A DNA stretch of 31,772 nt from assembly GCA_046345275.1 (NCBI GenBank), contig JBKDJY010000081.1, positions 1-31,772 on the forward strand. The letters are read 5' to 3'. Of this stretch, positions 7,939 to 31,568 are shown piece by piece. A model generated the notes under the pieces. It saw nothing but the letters and a program-made list of their open reading frames with translations. It had not been told where the DNA came from and searched no databases. Origin of the DNA: Bacteroidota bacterium (lineage in GTDB: Bacteria; Bacteroidota; Bacteroidia; B-17B0; Aurantibacillaceae). Within the stretch, counting starts at the first letter, position 1; every line of letters starts with the position of its first letter. The position numbers and the translations under genes were made by a program.

Positions 7939-9357
7939 TTGAAAAATATTAAAGAATACTTTAATGAACTGGCCTCCAAAAGGAAGAGACGAATAATTAC
8001 AAATTACTATTGGAAAGAAATTACAAATTATTGCAATTATTTTTCTCACCAAGACAACTCCGTTTTAGAAATTGGATGTGGAAGTGGTGATTTAATTGCA
8101 ACTATTTCCGGGAAAGAAAAAACAGGCATTGATTTTAGCAAAGGGCAAATTGCTTGGGCAAAAGAAAAACATGACGGTAAAAATGTAGAGTTTTTATTAA
8201 TGGATGCTGCCAATATCACTTTAACAAAAACATTTGATTATATCATCATCAGCAATTTAATTGGCTATTTGGATAACATACAAGTCGTTTTTGAGGAAGT
8301 AAAAAAAGTAAGTCATGCCAATACCAAAGTAATTGTTCAATACTATAATTCGCTGTGGGAACCTGTTTTAAAGTTTGCTGAGTTTCTTGGTTTAAAAACA
8401 AAAACGCCTACACAAAATTGGTTGAATTCTAAAGACGTCAATAACTTATTATTTATTTCTGGATTTGATGTTTATAGAAATAGTAAACGCTTTATTTTTC
8501 CTTTTTATGTTCCTTTAATTGCAGAAATATTTAATTTGGTTTTAGCCAAATTCCCTTTCTTTCGTTTTTTTAGTTTAAATAATTATTCGTTTGCAAAACC
8601 ATTACCTTTAAGTGATGAATCAGATTATCAAACTAAATACAGCACCACAGTTGTTATTCCAGCACGTAATGAAAGTGGTAATATAGAAAATGCCATCACG
8701 CGTTTACCAAAATTTGGAAAGCATGTTGAAATTATTTTTATTGAAGGAAACAGCACTGATGATACTTGGGATAAAATCAAGGAAGTACAAAAAAAATATG
8801 CTTCTACTCATGATATAAAAATAGGTCAACAAAAAGGAAAAGGAAAGGCAGACGCTGTGCGCGAAGGTTATAAAATTGCTACTGGAGATATATTAATGAT
8901 TTTAGATGCTGATTTGACGGTTCCACCAGAAGAGTTACCAAAATTTTACAATGCCATTGCTGGCAGCAAAGGTGATTTTATTAATGGCACCCGGTTGGTC
9001 TATCCAATGGAAAAAGAAGCCATGCGCTTGTTAAACTATTTAGGAAATCATTTTTTCAGTTGGGCATTTACCTGGTTGCTCGAACAGCGTTTTAAAGATA
9101 CACTTTGCGGAACGAAAGTTATGTTTAGAGAAGATTATATTAAGCTGACTAAAAATCGCAGCTACTTTGGCGAATTTGATCCTTTTGGAGATTTTGATTT
9201 ATTATTTGGCGCCTATAAATTAAATCTTAAAATTGTAGAAGTGCCCATTCGTTATAGGGAACGCACGTATGGCGAAACAAATATTTCTAGATTTAAGCAT
9301 GGCATCATTTTATTGCGCATGTGTGCGTTTGCAAGCAGAAAATGTAAATTTATTTAA
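7939..9357 (+). CDS. Bifunctional class I SAM-dependent methyltransferase / family 2 glycosyltransferase
   Basis: 472 aa. The N-terminal half has the SAM motif VLEIGCGSGD. The C-terminal half has GT2 motifs VVIPARNESGNIE and ILDADL. The start is TTG, and the next in-frame ATG is far downstream. Confidence 0.8.
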   Translation: MKNIKEYFNELASKRKRRIITNYYWKEITNYCNYFSHQDNSVLEIGCGSGDLIATISGKEKTGIDFSKGQIAWAKEKHDGKNVEFLLMDAANITLTKTFDYIIISNLIGYLDNIQVVFEEVKKVSHANTKVIVQYYNSLWEPVLKFAEFLGLKTKTPTQNWLNSKDVNNLLFISGFDVYRNSKRFIFPFYVPLIAEIFNLVLAKFPFFRFFSLNNYSFAKPLPLSDESDYQTKYSTTVVIPARNESGNIENAITRLPKFGKHVEIIFIEGNSTDDTWDKIKEVQKKYASTHDIKIGQQKGKGKADAVREGYKIATGDILMILDADLTVPPEELPKFYNAIAGSKGDFINGTRLVYPMEKEAMRLLNYLGNHFFSWAFTWLLEQRFKDTLCGTKVMFREDYIKLTKNRSYFGEFDPFGDFDLLFGAYKLNLKIVEVPIRYRERTYGETNISRFKHGIILLRMCAFASRKCKFI

Positions 9358-9857: not shown

Positions 9858-10658
9858 ATGAGTTTAGTAAATGCATTTATCAATCAAATAGGAAGAGAAA
9901 TCGGACACGATGTTTATAGAAACTTACGAATACGTTCTTCAAAACACATCCCAACAATTTCTTACACAGACTTTAATGAGAACTTTAAAGCAGAAATTAA
10001 AAGCTTTGAATTAGCGGCTTATGATAAAGTAAGCGTGAGAAGTTTAATTAATCTCATCGAGAAATCTGAAAAAATCAATCCAAGATCATTTAACTGGCAA
10101 GACTGTTATATTGAACTCGATAATAAAATTGATTTTTGCAAAGAGCATCTTGACAAAGAACATTTGGATAAATTAGAGACATTAGATACAAAAAACGCAA
10201 TGAATTTTTCTGTTGCAAATGAGCAACACAAAAACCACATCGCTCAAACAATAGAGAAAATTAAAAAAGAAATAACAAAGTACGAAAGCCTTAACTTAGC
10301 TCTTGGTTTTTTACTTTCATTGATTGGAATGAATCCTATTTATTTTAAAATGAACTTTGGAAAAATATTTGGTCATTTGTTCGGAACAATTGTTGGTGCT
10401 ATTTGCTTCTATTACGGTTACGTTACATACATTGACCCGATAATGCATCACGGAAATTTACCAATAGAAAACGAAGCTCAAATAAAAATAGTTAAGAATG
10501 TTGGCATTGCTATCATTGTCATTGGGTCAATATTTTATTTTCCTGTTCTTATTACTTCTATTAAAAGAATAATGAATTTAAAAAAAATAAATAGTAATAA
10601 CCATGAGACATTATCTACACTAACCAAATATCTCGAAGAAGTAACCAAATCAAAATAA
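9858..10658 (+). CDS. Hypothetical membrane protein (soluble N-terminal half, about 3 C-terminal TM helices)
   Basis: 266 aa ORF that starts 3 nt after the previous stop. It contains an internal tandem EHLDKEHLDK and hydrophobic segments LALGFLLSLIG, FGTIVGAICFYYGYV and GIAIIVIGSIFYFPVLI. No family was recognised. Confidence 0.6.
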   Translation: MSLVNAFINQIGREIGHDVYRNLRIRSSKHIPTISYTDFNENFKAEIKSFELAAYDKVSVRSLINLIEKSEKINPRSFNWQDCYIELDNKIDFCKEHLDKEHLDKLETLDTKNAMNFSVANEQHKNHIAQTIEKIKKEITKYESLNLALGFLLSLIGMNPIYFKMNFGKIFGHLFGTIVGAICFYYGYVTYIDPIMHHGNLPIENEAQIKIVKNVGIAIIVIGSIFYFPVLITSIKRIMNLKKINSNNHETLSTLTKYLEEVTKSK

Positions 10659-10659
10659 C

Positions 10660-10854
10660 ATGAAAAACATAATTTTATTTATCTCAATTGTGACATTCTT
10701 TACCTTTTCTTCTTGCGAAAAGAAAAAGCAATGCGAACAAGTAAGAACAGGATGCGTTTGTAATGACAACACAACTTCAACAGCAACAGGTAGTGGCGCT
10801 TGTGCTGGACACGGTGGAGTAAAAGAATGGACTACAAAAGAAGTATGTAACTAA
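10660..10854 (+). CDS. Small Cys-rich lipoprotein, DUF3761-like
   Basis: 64 aa. Lipoprotein signal peptide with lipobox (FTFSSC). The mature part C.C.D.T.S...GSGAC.GHGGVKEW resembles the DUF3761 signature. The start is 1 nt after the upstream stop. Confidence 0.6.
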   Translation: MKNIILFISIVTFFTFSSCEKKKQCEQVRTGCVCNDNTTSTATGSGACAGHGGVKEWTTKEVCN

Positions 10855-10860
10855 TTTCAA

Positions 10861-11532
10861 ATGGAAAATATAGAAGAAAATAAAGAGAAATTAAATTTTT
10901 TAAATTTATTAATTATTATTCTTTCCTTTTATGTTTTAGGTTCTCTAGTTGTTGACACTTTCTTCAAACTTCCGCCTGAAATTGCTAAAGTATTAAATTA
11001 CGTTGACAATTTTATTTGCGGTGTTTTTTTGCTTGACTTTATTGTTAGATATAGACAAGCTGAAAATAAATTGCAATTTATGAAATGGGGCTGGATAGAT
11101 CTTATTGCAAGTGTTCCAACACTTGACTTTATGCGTGCAGGAAGACTTCTTAGACTAATCCGACTAATAAGAATTATTAGAGCTTTTCGCTCAACCAAAC
11201 ATATTGTTCAGCATGTCTTTAAAAATAAAGTTCAAGGCACTTTAACATCAGTTTCAATAATTGCGGTTTTAATGCTTCTGTTTTCTTCAATTGCAATTTT
11301 ACAATTTGAAACAGACCCAAATAGTAATATAAAAACCGCTGGCGATGCCATATGGTGGGCATATGTTACAATGACAACAGTTGGTTATGGAGACAAATAT
11401 CCTGTGACAACAGAAGGAAGAATTATTGCAGCAATATTAATGACAGTTGGCGTTGGACTTTTTGGGACATTTACAGCTTATGTTTCTTCGTGGTTCGTTA
11501 AAGACAACGCTAAGAGTGCAGAAGAAAAATAA
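10861..11532 (+). CDS. Voltage-gated-type (6TM) potassium channel
   Basis: 223 aa. S4-like arginine ladder RLLRLIRLIRIIRAFR. The K+ selectivity filter is TMTTVGYGD, flanked by S5 and S6 helices. There is no cytoplasmic regulatory domain. Confidence 0.88.
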   Translation: MENIEENKEKLNFLNLLIIILSFYVLGSLVVDTFFKLPPEIAKVLNYVDNFICGVFLLDFIVRYRQAENKLQFMKWGWIDLIASVPTLDFMRAGRLLRLIRLIRIIRAFRSTKHIVQHVFKNKVQGTLTSVSIIAVLMLLFSSIAILQFETDPNSNIKTAGDAIWWAYVTMTTVGYGDKYPVTTEGRIIAAILMTVGVGLFGTFTAYVSSWFVKDNAKSAEEK

Positions 11533-15825: not shown

Positions 15826-18432
15826 ATGATAGATAAAAAAACACTTTCTGAACGTGATATTTGCACCAAGTTTATTACTCCTGCGGTTGAAAAAGCGGGT
15901 TGGAATAGACTGACACAGCTATTGGAGGAAGTTTCGTTCACGGACGGAAAAATTTATGTTAGAGGTAAACTAACGGCAAGAAGCAATAAAAAACGCGCCG
16001 ACTACATCCTGTATTTTAAACCCAACATTCCTGTTGCAATTATTGAAGCGAAAGACAATAAACATTCGGTGAGAGCCGGTATTCAACAGGCTTTGGACTA
16101 TGCTCAAATACTCGACATTCCTTGTGTTTTCAGCAGCAACGGTGACGGCTTTTTATTTCACGACCGCACGGCAACAGACGGAAATATTGAAACCGAAATT
16201 GCTATTGACGACTTTCCTACTCCCGAACAACTTTGGGAGAAATACAAAAAATACAAAGGCATCACAACGCCAACGGCTGAAAAAATTGCTTCGCAAGATT
16301 ATTACTTTGATGGAACAAACCGCAAACCAAGATACTATCAACAAATTGCAGTAAACAGAACTGTTGAAGCCATTGCCAACGAACAGAACCGAATTATTCT
16401 AGTAATGGCAACAGGTACAGGTAAAACTTATACTGCTTTTCAAATTATTTACCGTTTATGGAAATCAAGAAGTAAAAAAAGAATTTTGTTTCTTGCAGAC
16501 AGAACAGCTTTAATTGACCAAACAAGAAAGGGCGATTTTAAGCACTTTAAAGATAAAATGACTATCATTAAAAAGAAAGTCGTTTCTAACAAAGATGGTA
16601 AAGACGAACTAGTTTCCAATAAAAAAAGGGGAATTGATACTGAAGATAAAGCCTACGAAGTATTTCTTGGTTTATACCAAGGCTTAACTAATAATGAACC
16701 AGGTATTGAGGATGCTTATAAAGATTTTTCGCCTGACTTTTTTGACTTGATTGTAATTGACGAGTGTCACAGAGGAAGTGCAAAAGAAGACAGCAGTTGG
16801 AGAGAAATTTTATCCTATTTCAAAAACGCTACGCATATTGGTTTAACTGCCACGCCAAAGGAAACCAAAGAAACAAGCAACACCGAATATTTTGGTGACC
16901 CTGTTTATACCTATTCATTGAAACAAGGTATTGATGATGGTTTCCTTGCTCCTTATCGTGTAGTAAGAATTGGTTTGAATATAGATGCAGAAGGCTGGCG
17001 ACCAGATCAAGGCAAGACCGACAAAGATGGAAATGAATTTGAAGACAGAGTTTATAATCGCAAAGACTTTGACCGCAGTTTGGTAATTGAAGAACGAACA
17101 GACTTAGTTGCAAAAAAACTTACCGAGTTTTTAAAAGGTTACGACCGTTTTGCAAAAACGATTGTGTTTTGTGTGGACATTGACCACGCTGAACGAATGA
17201 GAACATCATTAGCCAAACAAAATGCTGATTTAGTTTCCGAGAATTACAAATACGTTATGCAAATAACTGGCGACAATGATGAAGGCAAACGGGAATTAGG
17301 CAACTTCATAAATCCTGAAGAAAAATATCCTGTCATTGCGACTACTTCTGAATTAATGACTACTGGCGTTGATGCTCAAACTTGTAAAGTAATTGTGTTG
17401 GATGCCAACATCAATTCAATGACCAAGTTCAAACAAATTATTGGTAGAGGAACGCGTATCAATGAAGAATTCGGAAAACTCTATTTCACCATTCTTGATT
17501 TTAGAAACGCAACCGATTTGTTTGCCGACAAAGATTTTGATGGCGACCCAATTCGAGTAAAACCAGTTTCGCAAGACGAAGATTTATCATTGGTGGTTAT
17601 TGAAGAAGAAGAAAACACTGTAACAGTTTTAGATGAAGCTACAGGCGAAGAAATTGTATTTGAAAAAGCACAAATTCGTTATCCTGATGGTTCAAAATTA
17701 GGAGGCAATTGGGTTGCTAGAGAACCTGATGCAAGAAGAGAAAAAATTTATGTAAATGGTGTTGATGTTTCTGTTTTGGTGAGCCGTGAAATATATTTTG
17801 ACCAACACGGAAAACCAATTACTACAAGTTTAAAAGACCATACCAAAGAAATCATCAAAGAAAACTTTGCTTCGTTAGATGACTTTTTAAATAAATGGAA
17901 CACCACCGCCCGCAAAGAAGCCATCATTGCTGAATTGCAAGAACAAGGCGTAATGGTGGAAGCTTTGTATGATGCCGTAAACAAAGACCTGCCCGCCTTT
18001 AAAGAAGGGAAATTTTATACTTATGTAATTGAATGCAAAGACGGAACTTTTTACAAAGGACATACACAAGATTTAAAAAGAAGATTTGATGAACACAAAA
18101 ATGGATTAGGAGCTGAATGGACTAAAAATCATAAAGTGAGAGATTTAGTTCATTTTGAAGTTTTTAATACAAAGGTAGAAGCAATTAATAGAGAAGATTA
18201 TTTTAAATCTGGTCGAGGTAGAGAATGGTTAAAAGCTGAAAGAGAGAAAGGATTGTTGAACGGCAGGCAGGCGGGAGTGGATTTGTTCGACTTGATTTGT
18301 CACGTTGCATTTGACCAACCACCATTAACACGCCAGGAAAGAGCCAATAACGTAAAAAAGCGAAACTATTTTACCAAGTATGGGCGACCAAGCCAAAAAA
18401 GTATTAGAGGCCTTGTTAGACAAATACGCTGA
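15826..18432 (+). CDS. hsdR: Type I restriction enzyme R subunit (EcoEI-like), main reading frame; carries an internal GIY-YIG insert and ends prematurely after a frameshift
   Basis: N-terminal PD-(D/E)xK nuclease region (ADYILY...AIIEAKD). SF2 motor motifs are MATGTGKT, VIDECHRG and QIIGRGTR. The C-terminal domain begins EcoEI_R_C-like (DLFDLICHVAFDQPPLTRQERA). From about 18382 the frame reads unrelated residues (GRPSQKSIRGLVRQIR*). Confidence 0.9.
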   Translation: MIDKKTLSERDICTKFITPAVEKAGWNRLTQLLEEVSFTDGKIYVRGKLTARSNKKRADYILYFKPNIPVAIIEAKDNKHSVRAGIQQALDYAQILDIPCVFSSNGDGFLFHDRTATDGNIETEIAIDDFPTPEQLWEKYKKYKGITTPTAEKIASQDYYFDGTNRKPRYYQQIAVNRTVEAIANEQNRIILVMATGTGKTYTAFQIIYRLWKSRSKKRILFLADRTALIDQTRKGDFKHFKDKMTIIKKKVVSNKDGKDELVSNKKRGIDTEDKAYEVFLGLYQGLTNNEPGIEDAYKDFSPDFFDLIVIDECHRGSAKEDSSWREILSYFKNATHIGLTATPKETKETSNTEYFGDPVYTYSLKQGIDDGFLAPYRVVRIGLNIDAEGWRPDQGKTDKDGNEFEDRVYNRKDFDRSLVIEERTDLVAKKLTEFLKGYDRFAKTIVFCVDIDHAERMRTSLAKQNADLVSENYKYVMQITGDNDEGKRELGNFINPEEKYPVIATTSELMTTGVDAQTCKVIVLDANINSMTKFKQIIGRGTRINEEFGKLYFTILDFRNATDLFADKDFDGDPIRVKPVSQDEDLSLVVIEEEENTVTVLDEATGEEIVFEKAQIRYPDGSKLGGNWVAREPDARREKIYVNGVDVSVLVSREIYFDQHGKPITTSLKDHTKEIIKENFASLDDFLNKWNTTARKEAIIAELQEQGVMVEALYDAVNKDLPAFKEGKFYTYVIECKDGTFYKGHTQDLKRRFDEHKNGLGAEWTKNHKVRDLVHFEVFNTKVEAINREDYFKSGRGREWLKAEREKGLLNGRQAGVDLFDLICHVAFDQPPLTRQERANNVKKRNYFTKYGRPSQKSIRGLVRQIR
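17988..18277 (+). mobile_element. In-frame GIY-YIG nuclease module (about 96 codons) inserted in hsdR, bounded by GC-rich imperfect inverted repeats
   Basis: The translation KFYTYVIECKDGTFYKGHTQDLKRRFDEHKNGLGAEWTK...FNTKVEAINREDYFK has the GIY..YIG..R..E layout. The insert is visibly more AT-rich than the flanking hsdR. The termini cctgcccgcc (17988-17997) and ggcaggcagg (18262-18271) pair 9/10. Confidence 0.6.
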
Positions 18433-18592
18433 TGAAGGCATCACAAATATTGAAAGCATTGAAGTATTGAGAGTAAATCCATTTGATGAATTTGGAAGTC
18501 CTATGGAAATTTTCAGTGAGTTTGGAAGCAAAGAAAATTATTTGCAAGCCGTAAAAGAATTAGAAATTGAATTGTATAAAAATATAGGATAG
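18380..18592 (+). CDS. hsdR: C-terminal remainder of HsdR (rest of the EcoEI_R_C-type domain) in the next reading frame
   Basis: GDQAKKVLEALLDKYADEGITNIESIEVLRVNPFDEFGSPMEIFSEFGSKENYLQAVKELEIELY continues the domain begun in the upstream frame. Removing one G from GGG at 18382-18384 joins ...FTKYG to DQAKKV. Confidence 0.8.
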   Translation: MGDQAKKVLEALLDKYADEGITNIESIEVLRVNPFDEFGSPMEIFSEFGSKENYLQAVKELEIELYKNIG

Positions 18593-18600
18593 ATAAATTG

Positions 18601-18647
18601 GAATGGGTTGAAACCTATTCTGTAAAAAAAATAGGGTTTAGCCAAAA
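18601..18647. repeat. REP-like hairpins on the left flank of the RAYT gene
   Basis: Imperfect palindrome gaatgggtt-ga-aacctattc (18601-18620). The element atagggtttagccaaaa (18631-18647) matches the reverse complement of 19097-19113 at 16/17 positions. Confidence 0.7.
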
Positions 18648-18656
18648 AAAATAAAA

Positions 18657-19094
18657 ATGCCATTTGTTAAAGTATATATCCATTTTGTTTGGAGTACAAA
18701 AAATAGATATCCATTCTTAGATTCAAAAGAATTGAGACTTAAAACATGGAATCATATAAGAGAAAATGCCAAAGAGAAAGGAATTTTTATTGATTTCATA
18801 AATGGATATTCAGACCATTGCCATTGTTTAGTTTCATTAAGTATTGATCAGACTATTCAAAAAGTCATGCAATTGATTAAAGGTGAATCTTCCTATTGGA
18901 TAAACAAACACGGTTTGACAAAAGAAAAGTTTGAATGGCAAGATGAGTATTTTGCAGTTTCAGTTTCGGAATCTATAATTGACAAAGTCAGAGAATATAT
19001 TAAAAATCAAGAAGAGCATCATAGCAAAAAAACATTTCAGGAGGAATATGATGAATTTATTAGCAAATATGAATTTGAGAAATTTAAAGGATAA
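18657..19094 (+). CDS. IS200/IS605-like Y1 (HUH) transposase, REP-associated tyrosine transposase (RAYT) type
   Basis: 145 aa. N-terminus YIHFVWSTKNR. The HUH motif is in SDHCHCLVSL. KGESSYWIN is present, and the C-terminal helix EYIKNQEEHH carries the catalytic-Tyr signature (YI..Q). Inverted REP hairpins flank the gene. Confidence 0.85.
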   Translation: MPFVKVYIHFVWSTKNRYPFLDSKELRLKTWNHIRENAKEKGIFIDFINGYSDHCHCLVSLSIDQTIQKVMQLIKGESSYWINKHGLTKEKFEWQDEYFAVSVSESIIDKVREYIKNQEEHHSKKTFQEEYDEFISKYEFEKFKG

Positions 19095-19096
19095 TA

Positions 19097-19255
19097 TTTT
19101 GGCTAAAGCCTATGAAGGAATTGAATTTATTTGTCCTCCTGCTAAAGCAGGAGGCAATTCAAAAGCAGGAGGCAATTCAAATTTCATTTCCTTTAATAGG
19201 AATGTGGCTTTAGCCCATTCCATTAAAAACAAATAAGTAAAAATGGCTTTAGCCA
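19097..19255. repeat. REP/BIME-like hairpin cluster on the right flank of the RAYT gene
   Basis: Elements seen: ttttggctaaagcctat (19097-19113); hairpin cctcctgc-taaa-gcaggagg (19135-19154); an 18-nt tandem duplication agcaggaggcaattcaaa x2 (19146-19181); hairpin ggaatgtggc-ttta-gcccattcc (19199-19221); palindrome tggctttagcca (19244-19255). Confidence 0.75.
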
Positions 19256-19272
19256 AACAAAATAACTAACAA

Positions 19273-20709
19273 ATGAGCAACATATCAGGCATAATAAAAA
19301 GCATTCAAAACATCATGTGGCAAGACACAGGCTTGAATGGCGACGCACAGCGCATTGAGCAATTAGGCTGGATGCTTTTTCTAAAAATATTTTCAGATAA
19401 AGACAAAGAGCTAGAGTTGCTGGACGACAAATACACATCTCCAATTCCCGACAAATTTCATTGGGTAAAAGAAAAAGGAAATTGGGCGGGTGATGATGAA
19501 GGCATGACAGGCGATGAATTGTTGGAGTTTGTAGACAGACAATTGTTTCCAGCACTTCGCAATTTAGATTTAAGCACCGGCAACCAACGTGCAGTAATTG
19601 TGAGAGAAGTATTTGAAGGCAACAACAACTATATGAAAAGCGGCATCAACATTCGCAAAGTGTTGAACAAGCTCAACGAAATTGATTTTAACATAGCCAA
19701 AGACCGCCACGCTTTTGGTGAATTGTACGAAATCATTTTAAAGGAATTACAAAGTGCAGGTAAAAGCGGAGAGTTTTATACGCCCAGAGCCATCACACAA
19801 TTTATTACCGAAACAATCAATCCGCAACTGGGCGAAAAAGTGCTTGACCCTGCTTGCGGAACAGGTGGTTATTTGACTTGTGCCATTGAGCATTTAAAAA
19901 AACAAGCTAAAAATGTAAAAGAACGCAAAAGTATTGAAGACAACATTGCAGGTTGGGAATACAAACCATTACCGTATTTGTTGGCAACAACCAATCTCAT
20001 TTTACACGACATTGAAATACCAAACATCAAATTTGGCGATGCTTTAGACCAACCGTTAAGCAACTTTACCGAAAAGCACCGAGTAAATGTCATATTAGCA
20101 AATCCGCCATTTGGTGGTATTGTAGCCAACAACAACGAAACTAATTTTCCACAAACTTATCGTACAAAAGAAAGTGCCGACTTGTTTTTAATTTTAATGA
20201 TTCACTTATTAAAGCAAGATGGACGAGCAGGAATTGTTTTGCCCGATGGCAGTTTAACAGGCGATGGCGTAAAGCAACGCATCCGACAAAAGTTGTTGGA
20301 AGATTGTAACCTACATACGATTATTCGTTTGCCAAATTCCGTTTTTCAACCTTACGCAACGGTGGCTACCAATTTGTTGTTTTTTGATAAGGGCAAACCC
20401 ACTAAAGACATTTGGTATTACGAACACCGTATGCCCGAAGGGTATAAAGCATACAACAAAACACGACCAATTAAAGTTGAAGAATTTGAACCGATTAAAA
20501 AATGGTGGAACAAACGCAAAGAAAGTGATATTGCGTGGAAAGTAAACATTAAAACGATTATTGAACGTGGTTACGATTTGGATATTAAGAATCCTACCAA
20601 ACCCGAAGAAGAAAAAGAATACAATAGTGCAGAGCTGATGGAAATGCTAAATGCTTCTTTTGAGAAAAGCCATCAATTGTTGAACCAACTTAAAAAGGCG
20701 ATGAAATGA
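19273..20709 (+). CDS. hsdM: Type I restriction-modification N6-adenine DNA methyltransferase subunit M
   Basis: 478 aa. HsdM N-terminal domain. The SAM motif is LDPACGTGGYL and the catalytic motif is LANPPFGG. Confidence 0.93.
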   Translation: MSNISGIIKSIQNIMWQDTGLNGDAQRIEQLGWMLFLKIFSDKDKELELLDDKYTSPIPDKFHWVKEKGNWAGDDEGMTGDELLEFVDRQLFPALRNLDLSTGNQRAVIVREVFEGNNNYMKSGINIRKVLNKLNEIDFNIAKDRHAFGELYEIILKELQSAGKSGEFYTPRAITQFITETINPQLGEKVLDPACGTGGYLTCAIEHLKKQAKNVKERKSIEDNIAGWEYKPLPYLLATTNLILHDIEIPNIKFGDALDQPLSNFTEKHRVNVILANPPFGGIVANNNETNFPQTYRTKESADLFLILMIHLLKQDGRAGIVLPDGSLTGDGVKQRIRQKLLEDCNLHTIIRLPNSVFQPYATVATNLLFFDKGKPTKDIWYYEHRMPEGYKAYNKTRPIKVEEFEPIKKWWNKRKESDIAWKVNIKTIIERGYDLDIKNPTKPEEEKEYNSAELMEMLNASFEKSHQLLNQLKKAMK

Positions 20710-21590
20710 GTTCGTCGTTAAAAATATCCATTCGTTTTTTTAATGATCGCGAAGTACGTGCCGTTTGGGATGAGCAAGATGCCAAATGGTGGTTTTCTGT
20801 ATTGGATGTTGTGGGTATTCTGAACGAAGAAAACGACTACAACAAAGTAAGGAACTATTGGAAATACCTCAAAGCCAAGTTAAAGAAAGAGAATAACGAA
20901 CTGGTTAGTGCCACTACCCAGTTGAAATTTTTAGCACCCGATGGCAAAATGCGTTTAGCAGATATGCTTGACAGCGATGGGGTAACCGCATTAGCTAAAA
21001 ATTTCCCCAACAATAGGGCAATGAAATTTTTAGATTGGTTTTTATACAGCGACACTAGCATTGACGGGCAAAGTAAGAAAAAAGCCTACACCTTGTTTGA
21101 AAGCAATTTGATAAACGAATTTGAGGTAGGCACCACCAAAGGTTTACAACAAATACACGCTTATTTGTTTGGTGGCTTGTATGAATTTGCCGGGCAAATT
21201 AGAGAAAAAAGCATTTCGAAAGGGGGCTATCAGTTTGTGTATGCACAGCAATTAAAAAACACTTTGCGAAAAATTGATGCCATGCCACAAACTACTTTGG
21301 ATGAAATTATTTTGAAATACACTGAAATGAACAAGGCACACCCCTTTATGGAAGGCAATGGCAGAAGCACCAGAATATGGCTGGATATGATGCTAAAAAA
21401 ACAACTTAAAAAATGTGTAGACTGGAGCAAAATAAAAAAAGATCAGTATATGAATGCCATGATAATTAGTACCGTTGATTACACGGTGCTACTGCAACTC
21501 ATTACAAAGGCGCTGACCCCTAAAATTAAGGACCGAGAAATGTATATGAAAGGCATTGATTATTCTTATTATTATGAGGAAAACAATTAA
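20706..21590 (+). CDS. Bro-N-like DNA-binding domain fused to a Fic (AMPylase/filamentation) domain
   Basis: 294 aa. The N-terminus FNDREVRAVWDEQDAKWWFSVLDVVGIL...YWKYLKAKLKKE...QLKFLAPDGKMRLAD is Bro-N/DinD-like. The C-terminus has the canonical Fic active site HPFMEGNGRSTR. The ATG overlaps the hsdM stop (ATGA). Confidence 0.85.
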   Translation: MSSSLKISIRFFNDREVRAVWDEQDAKWWFSVLDVVGILNEENDYNKVRNYWKYLKAKLKKENNELVSATTQLKFLAPDGKMRLADMLDSDGVTALAKNFPNNRAMKFLDWFLYSDTSIDGQSKKKAYTLFESNLINEFEVGTTKGLQQIHAYLFGGLYEFAGQIREKSISKGGYQFVYAQQLKNTLRKIDAMPQTTLDEIILKYTEMNKAHPFMEGNGRSTRIWLDMMLKKQLKKCVDWSKIKKDQYMNAMIISTVDYTVLLQLITKALTPKIKDREMYMKGIDYSYYYEENN

Positions 21591-21602
21591 ACAGGTATTT
21601 AT

Positions 21603-23024
21603 ATGAGTTGGAAGAAAGTAAAGCTAAAGGAAATATTGAAACAATACCGAATAGAACTTTTGGTACAAAATGATATTGAATATAAACAAGTGACAATATC
21701 AAAATATGATGGTATCACTTTTAGAGGAACTAGAATAGGAAGAGAAATAGGGCGTAAAAGACAATTTCAAATTGACCTTAAAAGGTTTCCCAATACGTTA
21801 ATGTTCGTGAGGCAAGGTGTTCAAGATGGCTCAATAGGGATTGCACCGATCGAGGTTGAGGGTTGCATAGCAACTGAAAATATGCCAATGTTCTCCATTG
21901 AAGGAATAAATTTGGAATACCTAAAACTTCTTTTGAAGTCACCATATTTTAATGATGAATTAAATAAAATTCAAACAACTGGCTCAGCTCAAAAATCCAT
22001 TCATGAAAGAGAAATATTGGAAATTGAAATTCCATTTCCTGATTTTGAAGAGCAAGAAGATATTGTTCGCCAATTGTCAAGTAAAAAAAATAACTCATTA
22101 GAAATCTCAACTGAACTCAGCCACCAACTCACCTTAGTAAAAAAACTCCGACAGCAATTATTGCAGGATGCTGTGCAAGGCAAATTGGTGGCTCCCTCTC
22201 CTTTGGAGAGGGCGGGGGGAGAGGTCGAACCAGCAAGCGAATTGCTCAAAAAGATAAAGGAGGAACGCCTGAATAGGGTTGGGTTTCAACCCGACCCCAA
22301 AAAAGATATTGGGCTAAAGCCCAACAAATTTTCTAACCATAGCTCGGGGTTAAAACCCCGAGCTATTAAAGAACTACCACCCATCAAACCCGAAGATATT
22401 CCTTTTGAAATTCCTGAAAATTGGGTGTGGTGTAGGTTGGGGGAGATTGCAGAAATTGGAACAGGAGCAACTCCATTAACTTCAAATCCTGAATATTATG
22501 AGAATGGAGACATTCCTTGGATTACAAGTTCAGCTACTAATAATTTATTTATAATTGAACCAGAATTATATATTACCGAAAAGGCATTAAAAGAGACAAA
22601 TTGCAAGGTTTACCCCGCAGGAACTTTAGTTGTCGCTATGTATGGACAAGGTAAAACTAGGGGTCAAATCACCGAATTGAATTTCCCTGCTGCAACTAAT
22701 CAAGCTTGTGCCACAATTACTTTATTTTTTAATGAATTCACTTTGAGAAAATATGTGAAATTGTTTTTTCAAAAAATCTATAATGAAATTAGAGAATTGG
22801 CGCAAGGTGGAGCACAACCAAATTTGAATATGGGAAAGGTTAGAGATACTATAATTTCCCTTCCTCCACTTGCAGAACAAAACCGAATCGTTCAAAAATT
22901 AGACGAGCTAATGCAGTATTGCAATGAGTTAGAAACAAGCATCAAACAAAGTGAATCGCAAAATTCAACACTACTGCAACAGGTTTTGAAAGAAGCATTG
23001 AGGAAAGAACCTTTGGAGGTGTAA
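21603..23024 (+). CDS. hsdS: Type I restriction-modification specificity subunit S
   Basis: 473 aa. Two target-recognition domains are separated by a conserved helical spacer (LRQQLLQDAVQGKLV ... EPASELLKKIKEE ... IPFEIPENWVWCRLGEI). A second conserved helix lies at the C-terminus (LAEQNRIVQKLDELMQYCNELE). Confidence 0.9.
   Translation: MSWKKVKLKEILKQYRIELLVQNDIEYKQVTISKYDGITFRGTRIGREIGRKRQFQIDLKRFPNTLMFVRQGVQDGSIGIAPIEVEGCIATENMPMFSIEGINLEYLKLLLKSPYFNDELNKIQTTGSAQKSIHEREILEIEIPFPDFEEQEDIVRQLSSKKNNSLEISTELSHQLTLVKKLRQQLLQDAVQGKLVAPSPLERAGGEVEPASELLKKIKEERLNRVGFQPDPKKDIGLKPNKFSNHSSGLKPRAIKELPPIKPEDIPFEIPENWVWCRLGEIAEIGTGATPLTSNPEYYENGDIPWITSSATNNLFIIEPELYITEKALKETNCKVYPAGTLVVAMYGQGKTRGQITELNFPAATNQACATITLFFNEFTLRKYVKLFFQKIYNEIRELAQGGAQPNLNMGKVRDTIISLPPLAEQNRIVQKLDELMQYCNELETSIKQSESQNSTLLQQVLKEALRKEPLEV
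22193..22363. repeat. Four REP-like hairpins embedded in-frame in the hsdS central spacer
   Basis: Hairpins: ccctctcc-ttt-ggagaggg (22193-22211); gggttgggtt-tc-aacccgaccc (22275-22296, one G.T); ttgggc-taaa-gcccaa (22308-22323); agctcggggtt-aa-aaccccgagct (22340-22363, perfect 11 bp). The third shares the GGC-TAAA-GCC core of the RAYT-flanking REPs. Confidence 0.75.
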
Positions 23025-23305
23025 ATAAAATGAAAGATGATGCTTCGCATAAACATTTGTGCTGAAAATCGCCGCCTTCGCTAAGTCCGAAACCGCTAAG
23101 CCAAAACTTCATTCAAGCACTTTTTTGTTCGGATGCCAAAATGGTTTTGTCCTAATTTGGTTGTTGTTCAATTTCAAAGTGGTTCTGCAAAATTTGTTGA
23201 TTGTTGTGTAAAACTCCGTTTAACCTGAGATATAGAAAATTGTTGTTTGATTATGAATATCATATTTACCAAGAAGTTTTTAATCGCTTCATTGATAGCC
23301 AGTCC

Positions 23306-31537: not shown

Positions 31538-31568
31538 AAAAAGCCCTTGCGTTACAAGGGCTTTTTTT
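31538..31568. terminator. Bidirectional intrinsic terminator
   Basis: aaaaagcccttg-cgtta-caagggcttttttt forms a 12-bp stem with an A-run on the left and a T-run on the right. It lies between the tRNA-like 3' end (+) and the convergent T9SS-tail gene (-). Confidence 0.85.

Follow-up and report, generated by a model that had tools for sequence, protein, structure and literature searches.

In-frame REP-type palindromes in the linker of a type I specificity subunit (HsdS) from Bacteroidota

The hsdS gene of a type I restriction-modification (R-M) operon was analysed in a stretch of 31,772 nucleotides from a Bacteroidota bacterium (assembly GCA_046345275.1, contig JBKDJY010000081.1). This stretch, termed here the window, is 31.7 kb long with 33% GC and evidently derives from a metagenome-assembled genome. 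The gene (21603-23024, on the plus strand like the other window features described below) encodes a 473-amino-acid specificity subunit and displays four strong hairpins between its first conserved helix and the second target recognition domain (TRD2). Three of the hairpins are members of a family of repetitive extragenic palindromic (REP) units, other copies of which flank a Y1 transposase gene within this operon, and related hsdS genes carry repeat units at the same two sites. The favoured explanation, to which a probability of about 0.78 is assigned, is that REP units were inserted in frame into the HsdS linker and are carried as a loop, without a change in specificity.

Four hairpins within an open reading frame

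The first hairpin, H1 (22194-22212), has an 8 bp stem formed by CCCTCTCC (22194-22201) and GGAGAGGG (22205-22212), and is followed by a third arm, GGAGAGG, at 22218-22224. H2 (22276-22297) consists of GGGTTGGG-TTTCAA-CCCGACCC, with 9-10 pairs that include one G.T; it has an AATAGG lead-in and is followed by an A-run, the whole unit spanning 22272-22305. H3 (22309-22324), TTGGGCTAAAGCCCAA, reads TTGGGC-TAAA-GCCCAA with a stem of 6-7 bp and represents the 'type-3' terminal hairpin of the composite repeat described below. H4 (22339-22366), ATAGCTCGGGGTTAAAACCCCGAGCTAT, is formed by ATAGCTCGGGGTT-AA-AACCCCGAGCTAT with a perfect stem of 12-13 bp. An earlier reading of the letters of this DNA, referred to here as the original prediction, had called four hairpins in this part of hsdS, and all four are present with the positions and stem lengths that it gave. 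It also described G+C-rich palindromes that differ from their surroundings and are translated without a stop, and both descriptions hold: local G+C rises to 0.45-0.62 at the hairpins, in a window with 33% GC, and the segment is stop-free in the hsdS frame.

The RNA fold of the 196-nt region 22180-22375 has an energy of -76.9 kcal/mol compared with -54.6 +/- 4.5 kcal/mol for shuffled sequences (z = -5.0), and none of 200 shuffles was as good. The whole window has six perfect G+C-rich hairpins with stems of 6 bp or more, versus 1.6 +/- 1.0 in shuffles; four are in the hsdS linker, one adjoins the Y1 gene and one, at 31538, is terminator-like. A search of Rfam with region 18400-23300 gave no family match. 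An internal terminator was considered and rejected, as a weak terminator-like score was obtained for H3 only (on both strands) and no T-run follows H1, H2 or H4.

Insertion sites relative to homologous proteins

The protein was aligned with its 60 best homologues, and the linker was measured in 94 of 120 listed homologues (7857 in total). From the end of the first conserved helix (...LRQQLLQDAVQGKL) to TRD2 (IPFEIPENWVW), the linker comprises 44 amino acids in 64 of the 94, with the pattern V-EQNPKD-EPASELLKKIKAE-KEKLIAEKKLKKE-KELPPIKPEEI, versus 71 in the window protein. Two sites account for the difference. At site 1 (22191-22226), 12 codons containing H1, APSPLERAGGEV, stand in place of six (EQNPKD), which adds 6 amino acids (net +18 nt). 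A retained host segment, EPASELLKKIKEE (22227-22265), follows; it is conserved in all homologues and starts a linker helix at amino acids 211-227. At site 2 (22266-22367), the three REP-type hairpins form 34 codons, RLNRVGFQPDPKKDIGLKPNKFSNHSSGLKPRAI, in place of 13 (KEKLIAEKKLKKE), adding 21 amino acids (net +63 nt). A DNA alignment with the uninterrupted hsdS of a related locus, L009, shows sharp insert boundaries. The site-2 array is stop-free in one of its six frames, and H1 in all six.

The proposal that the hairpins were inserted is therefore borne out by the linker lengths, and the finding that would have spoken against it, the same residues in homologues that lack the repeats, was not made; most homologues are uninterrupted. 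The locus displays the features of an in-frame palindromic insertion: members of a repeat family within an open reading frame, free of stops, with a length that is a multiple of three and with close homologues that lack the insert. In the predicted protein model the insert also lies in a loop with the fold intact. The identical 473-amino-acid HsdS is encoded by three independent assemblies, and an assembly artefact or chimera was rejected on this ground. One of the assemblies with the same hsdS is GCA_046345195.1, whose contig also has a Por_Secre_tail gene.

Repeat families behind the hairpins

The Y1 (HUH) transposase gene (18657-19094; 145 amino acids; Pfam Y1_Tnp, 99 bits) is IS200-like and lies between hsdR and hsdM, 3 kb upstream of the hsdS hairpins. 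On its 5' side (18600-18650) are the hairpins GGAATGGGTTGAAACCTATTC (18600-18620, inverted relative to H2) and AATAGGGTTTAGCC (18630-18643). On its 3' side is a composite REP element of ∼160-165 nt (19099-19258), which consists of TTGGCTAAAGCC, then CCTCCTGCTAAAGCAGGAGG followed by a repeated arm GCAGGAGGCAATTCA, then AATAGGAATGTGGCTTTAGCCCATTCC and TGGCTTTAGCCAAAC. The motif GGCTWWAGCC has four copies in the window versus 0.02 expected, three adjoining the Y1 gene and the fourth being H3. GGKTTNAAMCC has three copies versus 0.16 expected, one adjoining the Y1 gene and the others being H2 and H4. Both motifs are confined in the window to the flanks of the Y1 gene and the hsdS linker.

H2 is the 'type-2' hairpin of this composite repeat. 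The core found next to the Y1 gene, both in the window (18605) and in another locus, L146, is the H2 core GGGTTTCAACCC in reverse complement, and the H2 lead-in is that of the repeat at 19195-19231. Taken together, H2 and H3 are arranged like the 3' half of the composite element. The sharing of the H3 core with the Y1-flanking REPs, and of the H2 lead-in with a repeat in the Y1 flank, had been noticed in the original prediction and is confirmed. A bridge between the two places is provided by the hsdS of L004 (protein P0003), which has one unit at site 2, CTGAATAGGGATGCGGCTTTAGCCCGTCCCAAAAAG. The unit begins at the same nucleotide as the window array and matches the hairpin 3' of the window Y1 gene (AATAGGAATGTGGCTTTAGCCCATTCC, 19195-19221) with compensatory stem changes. 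H2 in turn has the same start point and architecture as this single L004 unit, AATAGGGATGCGGCTTTAGCCCGTCCCAAAAAG, with a compensatory A-T to T-A change between them.

The 22-mer AATAGGRATGNGGCTTTAGCCC, common to window 19195-19216 and the L004 insert, was found in at least 120 stretches in 185,579 species genomes, where about one is expected by chance (21 specified bases in 596 Gb). The matches listed are nearly all from Bacteroidota, with Algoriphagus, Cyclobacterium, Aquiflexum, Cognataquiflexum, Cyclobacteriaceae, Crocinitomicaceae, Chitinophagales, Flavobacteriaceae and Spirosomataceae among them, and they are often clustered, with up to 6 per 8 kb. Their flanks give a composite element, [..GCAGGAGGCAATTCA] ... 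AATAGGAATGYGGCTTTAGCCCATTCC ... 20-25 nt ... GGCTTTAGCCAA, with the same arrangement as at window 19099-19258. A sample of 120 genome loci from Bacteroidota, rich in Cytophagales and fetched via the type-2 pattern alone (867 kb), contains 167 type-2 hairpins and 502 GGCT(TT/AA)AGCC hairpins. Hairpins of types 2 and 3 are thus multi-copy in other Bacteroidota genomes; restriction to this one place would have told against a repeat family.

A scan of JGI metagenomes with the 20-nt core of H4 yielded 40 stretches. Two are in further hsdS genes with the same array (L142 and L151). In seven loci (L140, L155, L157, L158, L162, L167 and L168), the core lies 4-6 nt past the stop of an IS200-type tnpA gene, that of L158 being assigned to Pfam Y1_Tnp. 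The core is also found near the 3' ends of TnpB-like genes and just upstream of the L146 Y1 gene. The latter gene is flanked by hairpins GGGTTAAAACCC, GGGGTTTTAACCCC, GGGTTGAAACCC and GGGGCTTCAGCCCC / CCATGGGTTAAAACCCATGG, CTCGGGGTTTTAACCCCGAG, CCCATGGGTTGAAACCCATG and TTGGGGCTTCAGCCCCGAG, which include the core of H4 and, in reverse complement, that of H2; the last hairpin is similar to H3. An identical 20-nt hairpin, CTCGGGGTTAAAACCCCGAG, was seen in metagenome contigs (L134-L173) that range from 27% to 65% G+C, and in L152 the full 28-nt H4 palindrome lies between A- and T-runs, like a bidirectional terminator. Judged by these sequences, the H4-core hairpin is reused across very distant lineages.

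H1 belongs to a different, three-armed family. Its pattern, CCCTCTCCNNNGGAGAGGG, was found in at least 120 stretches in IMG/VR, and among the matches listed 25 are three-armed (arm, loop, arm, 2-4 nt, GGGGGAGAGG). Several IMG/VR contigs have 2-5 copies of the three-armed repeat, and one copy, in L212, is near-identical to H1. The assignment of the hairpins to the Y1-flanking family thus holds for H2, H3 and H4 and fails for H1.

Repeated insertion in related hsdS genes

Insertions of different extent are found in the same linker in relatives. L142 and L151 have the identical H1-H4 linker between completely different TRD1 and TRD2 sequences. L142 is 98.4% identical to the window over 1.6 kb downstream of hsdS and represents a sister strain, and its decorated hsdS open reading frame is intact. 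The original prediction had allowed that a sister strain might have an uninterrupted spacer; this was not borne out, as the L142 linker is decorated in the same way, between two exchanged TRDs. Exchange of TRDs around one and the same linker argues, from the sequences, that the decorated hsdS is a gene that is still working and diversifying. L011 has the site-2 array with an extra partial unit, and its site 1 is uninterrupted.

Site 1 of the L021 hsdS contains a whole composite element of ∼165 nt, read in frame (AKANFKNESISPPDKSGGNSKSGGNSNENDDLNRNVALAHSIKNELHIGFSQ). Over 144 nt this insert shares 81% identity with window 19119-19258, and its first hairpin displays triple compensatory changes, TGC/GCA to AGA/TCT. 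The operon order is hsdR-Y1-hsdM-hsdS, and a separate copy of the element follows the Y1 gene on its 3' side. Recent copying of the hsdS insert from this Y1-adjacent copy is unsupported; the three copies are ∼79% identical pairwise. The L021 hsdS gene provides the only type-2/GGCT(TT/AA)AGCC hairpins in the 867-kb sample that are at least 80-100 codons inside a long open reading frame. Three of the 502 GGCT(TT/AA)AGCC hairpins are at least 100 codons within such a frame, and all three are in this gene. The repeats are otherwise extragenic in the sample.

Inserts of other kinds were also seen. L006 has a hairpin, CCTGCCTGCCGGCAAGGCAGG, at site 2 that forms eight codons, NLPAGKAG (about 8670-8700). 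The arm of this insert is the inverted repeat that bounds a GIY-YIG cassette in the window hsdR, and the insert may be a solo end of that cassette. In L007 (326-1729, protein P0008), SELGEEGFKDDRTKTQILQSNNPKNPNPDN is present at site 1 and TLRQAQGD at site 2, and P0027 and P0031 have ALRQAQGT; these peptides look like repeat-derived sequences of other families. In the hsdS of L012 (protein P0054), site 1 holds an entire DUF559 (Vsr-like) endonuclease domain, read in frame (10526-11170). Hairpins CACCCCTCCTTTAAAGGAGGGGTG and GCTCCCCTAAAAGGGGAGC mark its two ends, a 27-nt direct repeat follows the former, and the 5' hairpin is similar to H1. H1 may be the solo end of a DUF559-type cassette, given the similar hairpin that bounds the L012 insert.

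The Y1 transposase as candidate mobiliser

The Y1 protein passes the NCBIfam IS200/IS605 model (64.7 bits, cut-off 55). By motif and length it fits subclass 1.2 of the Y1 transposases (PMC6006769), with motifs DHCH, WQ and YIKNQEEHH, the middle residue of the HUH motif being C and not I/V. Repeats flank a single Y1 gene in inverted orientation in the window and likewise in L021 and L146; the L021 orthologue is 88% identical to the window gene and has the same operon position, and the L146 gene is 69% identical. The Y1 gene is a candidate trans-acting mobiliser of the REP units. The conserved lead-in of the repeats, AATAGG or CATAG, contains ATAG and not the GTAG/CGTC of other intragenic REPs.

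A Y1 gene lies in the gap between hsdR and hsdM in three lineages, i.e., in the window, in L021 (4260-4697, minus strand) and in L012 (7129-7527). The L012 gene is unrelated; it encodes 132 amino acids and is accompanied by other hairpins, CCCGACCCTAAAAGGGTC and CGACCCCTTCAGGGTCG. In L006, this gap is occupied by a 23S_rRNA_IVP-like gene. The composite repeat is open in one frame in the window (18979-19236, ..CPPAKAGGNSKAGGNSNFISFNRNVALAHSIKNK), and the same peptide is read in the L021 HsdS. Gene callers may annotate such composite repeats as small hypothetical proteins.

Predicted protein structure and half-site spacing

The window protein has Pfam Methylase_S in two stretches, two long helices, and hsdM and hsdR alongside, as found in HsdS subunits. 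An AlphaFold2 model, based on a 94-sequence alignment, has a predicted local distance difference test (pLDDT) score of 88, with domains above 90, and its best Foldseek matches in the PDB are 1YF2, 3OKG and 5YBB (E = 1e-19 to 1e-22). The model consists of TRD1, a helix of the first conserved region (CR1; D1, amino acids 148-191), the decorated linker (192-266), TRD2, and a helix of the second conserved region (CR2; D2, 423-466). Helices D1 and D2 are predicted to comprise 44 residues each, and the linker helix (211-227) 17. In the model of the uninterrupted protein P0006, D1 (148-191), the linker helix (205-221, 17 residues) and D2 (394-437, 44 amino acids) are of the same lengths. As D1 and D2, which determine how far apart the TRDs lie, are equal with and without the inserts, no change in these helices is predicted.

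The inserts begin five residues past the end of D1. Site 1 is modelled as a loop with pLDDT 83-89, and residues 233-252 of site 2 have pLDDT below 50; the inserts are predicted to be largely disordered. In the model, the linker helix ends with ERLNRVG, encoded by the first codons of the REP array, in place of EKEKLIS; the remainder loops out. In the solved HsdS structures 1YF2, 3OKG/5YBB and 7BST, D1 leads almost directly to TRD2 without such a linker.

The original prediction had placed the inserts in the part of the central region that sets the half-site spacing, following the EcoR124I/II precedent, and had suggested that REP remodelling would be a new route to variation in specificity. The TAEL repeat of EcoR124I/II sits inside the D1 helix (Loenen et al. 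review, PMC3874165). No D1 or D2 length change of that type was found between the decorated protein and P0006, and the inserts lie after D1, which leaves the placement incorrect and the proposed route unsupported by the predicted anatomy. The more modest suggestion of the same prediction, that the peptide is tolerated as a loop, fits best. It has also been reported that truncated, co-expressed, split and circularly permuted S subunits are active with the same specificity (PMC3874165), from which it follows that the covalent connection between D1 and TRD2 is dispensable.

A proposed course of events

It is proposed that a linker of ∼45 residues, from the first coiled-coil helix to TRD2, was colonised by non-autonomous palindromic mobile elements. 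Site 2 would hold part of the composite Y1-adjacent element plus a further unit, H4, and site 1 a unit of the unrelated three-armed family. Mobilisation of the units, as single-stranded hairpins, is presumably the work of the Y1 transposase or of a paralogue. The units would land in the A-rich, Lys/Glu-coding linker, where only in-frame, stop-free outcomes survive. The linker appears to be permissive, and the encoded peptides would be borne as an extra, mostly disordered loop. The recognition sequence and the gap would still be set by the two TRDs and the untouched spacing helices. The decorated linker would then be inherited as part of the conserved hsdS centre while the flanking TRDs are exchanged. 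Neutrality of the inserts and an unchanged specificity are, in this scheme, expectations from the models.

The operon and its other insertions

The R-M operon spans 15826-23024, in the order hsdR, Y1_Tnp gene, hsdM, Fic/Bro-N gene and hsdS. The methyltransferase subunit gene hsdM (19273-20709) has Pfam N6_Mtase and HsdM_N. The Fic/Bro-N gene (20706-21590), assigned by Pfam, overlaps the hsdM stop; it is also present in L011 and L012 and absent from L004, L009 and L021. In relatives the three hsd genes directly abut or overlap and encode proteins of 800-803 (hsdR), 478 (hsdM) and 444-446 (hsdS) amino acids, which indicates that the window operon acquired several additional pieces.

The hsdR gene (15826-18592) has an EcoEI_R_C tail and consists of two overlapping open reading frames, 15826-18432 and 18380-18592. 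A +1 frameshift at 18381-18383, caused by an extra G in a GGG run after ...FTKYG, leaves the last ∼66 HsdR residues on the second frame. The region is covered by one assembly only, and the frameshift represents either a pseudogene or a sequencing error. A GIY-YIG nuclease domain of ∼97 codons is present in frame within the EcoEI_R_C tail (window ∼17986-18276). Inverted repeats CCTGCCCGCC (17988-17997) and GGCAGGCAGGCGGG (18262-18275) lie at its ends, and the domain is missing from the HsdR of L012, which is 90% identical, and from that of L004.

Alternative explanations

A first alternative is a change in TRD geometry, with an altered half-site gap or a loss of specificity and hence REP-driven variation. 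The gap of type I enzymes does depend on the length of the conserved helix (EcoR124I/II; PMC3874165), 27 residues have been added between D1 and TRD2, and site 1 is only five residues from the helix end in a part modelled with pLDDT 83-89. However, D1 and D2 have 44 residues each either way and the TAEL precedent lies inside D1; split and permuted HsdS retain their specificity (PMC3874165); and three different TRD pairs are joined by this same decorated linker, the long insert of which is modelled as disordered. This alternative is decidedly improbable. A role at the level of DNA, whereby REP hairpins act as recombination or replication-pause hot spots for TRD exchange with the Y1 protein supplying the nicking, is also unlikely. 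It would account for a decorated centre common to alleles with entirely different TRD1 and TRD2, for the Y1 gene within the operon of the window and of L021 and the different Y1 gene within that of L012, and for the HsdS linker as the sole intragenic site of the repeat family in the 867-kb sample. Yet TRD shuffling over a conserved centre is universal in REP-free hsdS (PMC3874165), most homologues are undecorated, and no inverted or duplicated hsdS cassettes were seen nearby. A related and similarly doubtful proposal is that the HsdS linker is a preferred landing site, beyond being permissive, for Y1-mobilised hairpins housed in Bacteroidota type I R-M operons, which, together with the Y1 nickase encoded there, would raise TRD exchange or modulate the system. 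If this were true, the transposase-repeat pair would be a built-in diversifier of restriction specificity.

The operon might instead be decaying under a selfish load, with hsdS close to a pseudogene and its open frame a transient accident. The GIY-YIG insert and +1 frameshift of hsdR, and the Y1 and Fic genes wedged between subunit genes, speak for such decay. Against this, at least three alleles and more than five assemblies have an hsdS with an undisrupted frame, the single open frame among the six of site 2 points to selection for frame, both TRDs and the helices are modelled with high confidence, and the frameshift, in a G-run of a single assembly, could be an error; decay is considered quite unlikely. 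An RNA-level role in the hsdS message, as attenuator, as translational pause between the two halves or as mRNA stabiliser, would agree with the strong fold (z = -5), with the weakly terminator-like H3 on both strands and with the action of REPs as RNA elements elsewhere (PMC3733652). Set against these are the lack of hairpins in most homologues, the failure to match Rfam and the missing T-runs after H1, H2 and H4. The presence of unrelated elements at the same place in relatives fits a permissive site better, and an RNA role seems very improbable.

Several observations weigh against in-frame REP insertion as a neutral loop. Both sites are replacements that lost host codons rather than clean insertions, and the exact original events are not reconstructable. 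In the 31.7-kb window, the repeat has no copies beyond those in hsdS and around the Y1 gene. The 0.87 Mb of sampled loci contain only 0 to 1 site each for the exact stem variants of H2 and H4, and a scan of IMG/VR for the H2 lead-in plus core gave zero matches. With these stem variants so rare, family membership rests on architecture, on the cores beside Y1 genes in the window and L146, and on the L004 bridge. The Y1 protein falls below the curated model for REP-associated tyrosine transposases (RAYTs; NF047646 REP_Tyr_transpos), at 30.6 bits versus a cut-off of 80, and subclass 1.2 was described without associated repeats or secondary structure (PMC6006769). Neutrality and unchanged specificity are predictions that draw on AlphaFold2 models and on published work with other type I families. 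Lastly, with hsdR frameshifted in this assembly, the system may not restrict at all.

Comparison with known systems

Rickettsia palindromic elements (RPEs) are found in frame in protein-coding genes (summarised in PMC3733652). As in those, the palindromes in hsdS are short, stop-free within an open reading frame, absent from orthologues and seemingly compatible with function, and some RPE hosts also have arrays or double insertions. The two differ in phylum and in the repeats themselves, which are unrelated. In the window there is in addition a candidate Y1 mobiliser with the parent element in the same operon, and one linker is struck repeatedly by several element families.

A second parallel is given by intragenic GTAG/CGTC REPs, which form 'REP-decorated proteins' with 20-80 extra residues and a bias to DNA-metabolism genes (Di Nocera et al. 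2013, PMC3733652). An N-6 DNA methylase of O. terrae is among the cases listed there. In both cases REP units, single or grouped, encode extra residues in a known protein. The lead-in here is (A/C)ATAG, unlike the GTAG/CGTC that defines those REPs. HsdS is not among the decorated proteins in the available part of the supplementary text of PMC3733652, and full-text literature searches gave no earlier report of palindromic repeats inside hsdS.

Inverted hairpins that flank a Y1 gene, many dispersed copies (of the type-2 and type-3 hairpins, in other Bacteroidota genomes) and compensatory stem changes between lineages are features shared with the REPIN/RAYT systems, reportedly the subject of work by Bertels and Rainey in 2011 and by Nunvar in 2010. 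The present case differs from these in its IS200-like transposase that fails the RAYT model, in a composite of ∼165 nt with three or four different hairpins in place of a REP doublet, and in its Bacteroidota host. 

TnpA_Y1 proteins of subclass 1.2 are of ∼148 amino acids with motifs DH[IV]H, WQ and YIKNQKEHH, and are described as low in copy number and confined to Cyanobacteria and Bacteroidetes (Quentin et al. 2018, PMC6006769). In contrast to that description, the Y1 genes of the window, L021 and L146 are flanked by hairpins that are repeated elsewhere, which suggests that IS200-like Y1 transposases of subclass 1.2 do have cognate hairpin elements. The EcoR124I/EcoR124II pair is comparable in that the length of the central conserved part of hsdS has changed (PMC3874165). 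The TAEL repeat there adds one extra turn inside the coiled-coil helix, whereas here the helix is predicted to be unchanged and the residues are added in the linker that follows.

Implications

The hsdS linker represents a well-bounded case of in-frame palindromic-repeat insertion outside the Proteobacteria, with a candidate mobiliser in the same operon. Related genes form an allelic series: an uninterrupted linker, one unit, the three-hairpin array, the array plus a partial unit, and a full composite element at the other site. Without a methylome, inserts of this kind should not, on this evidence, be interpreted as specificity switches. It may also be of use for the annotation and engineering of type I systems and for the interpretation of odd peptides in Bacteroidota proteomes. 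Selfish inserts of at least five kinds have been taken up by the long linker of one HsdS clade, and the operons concerned contain the transposase as well.

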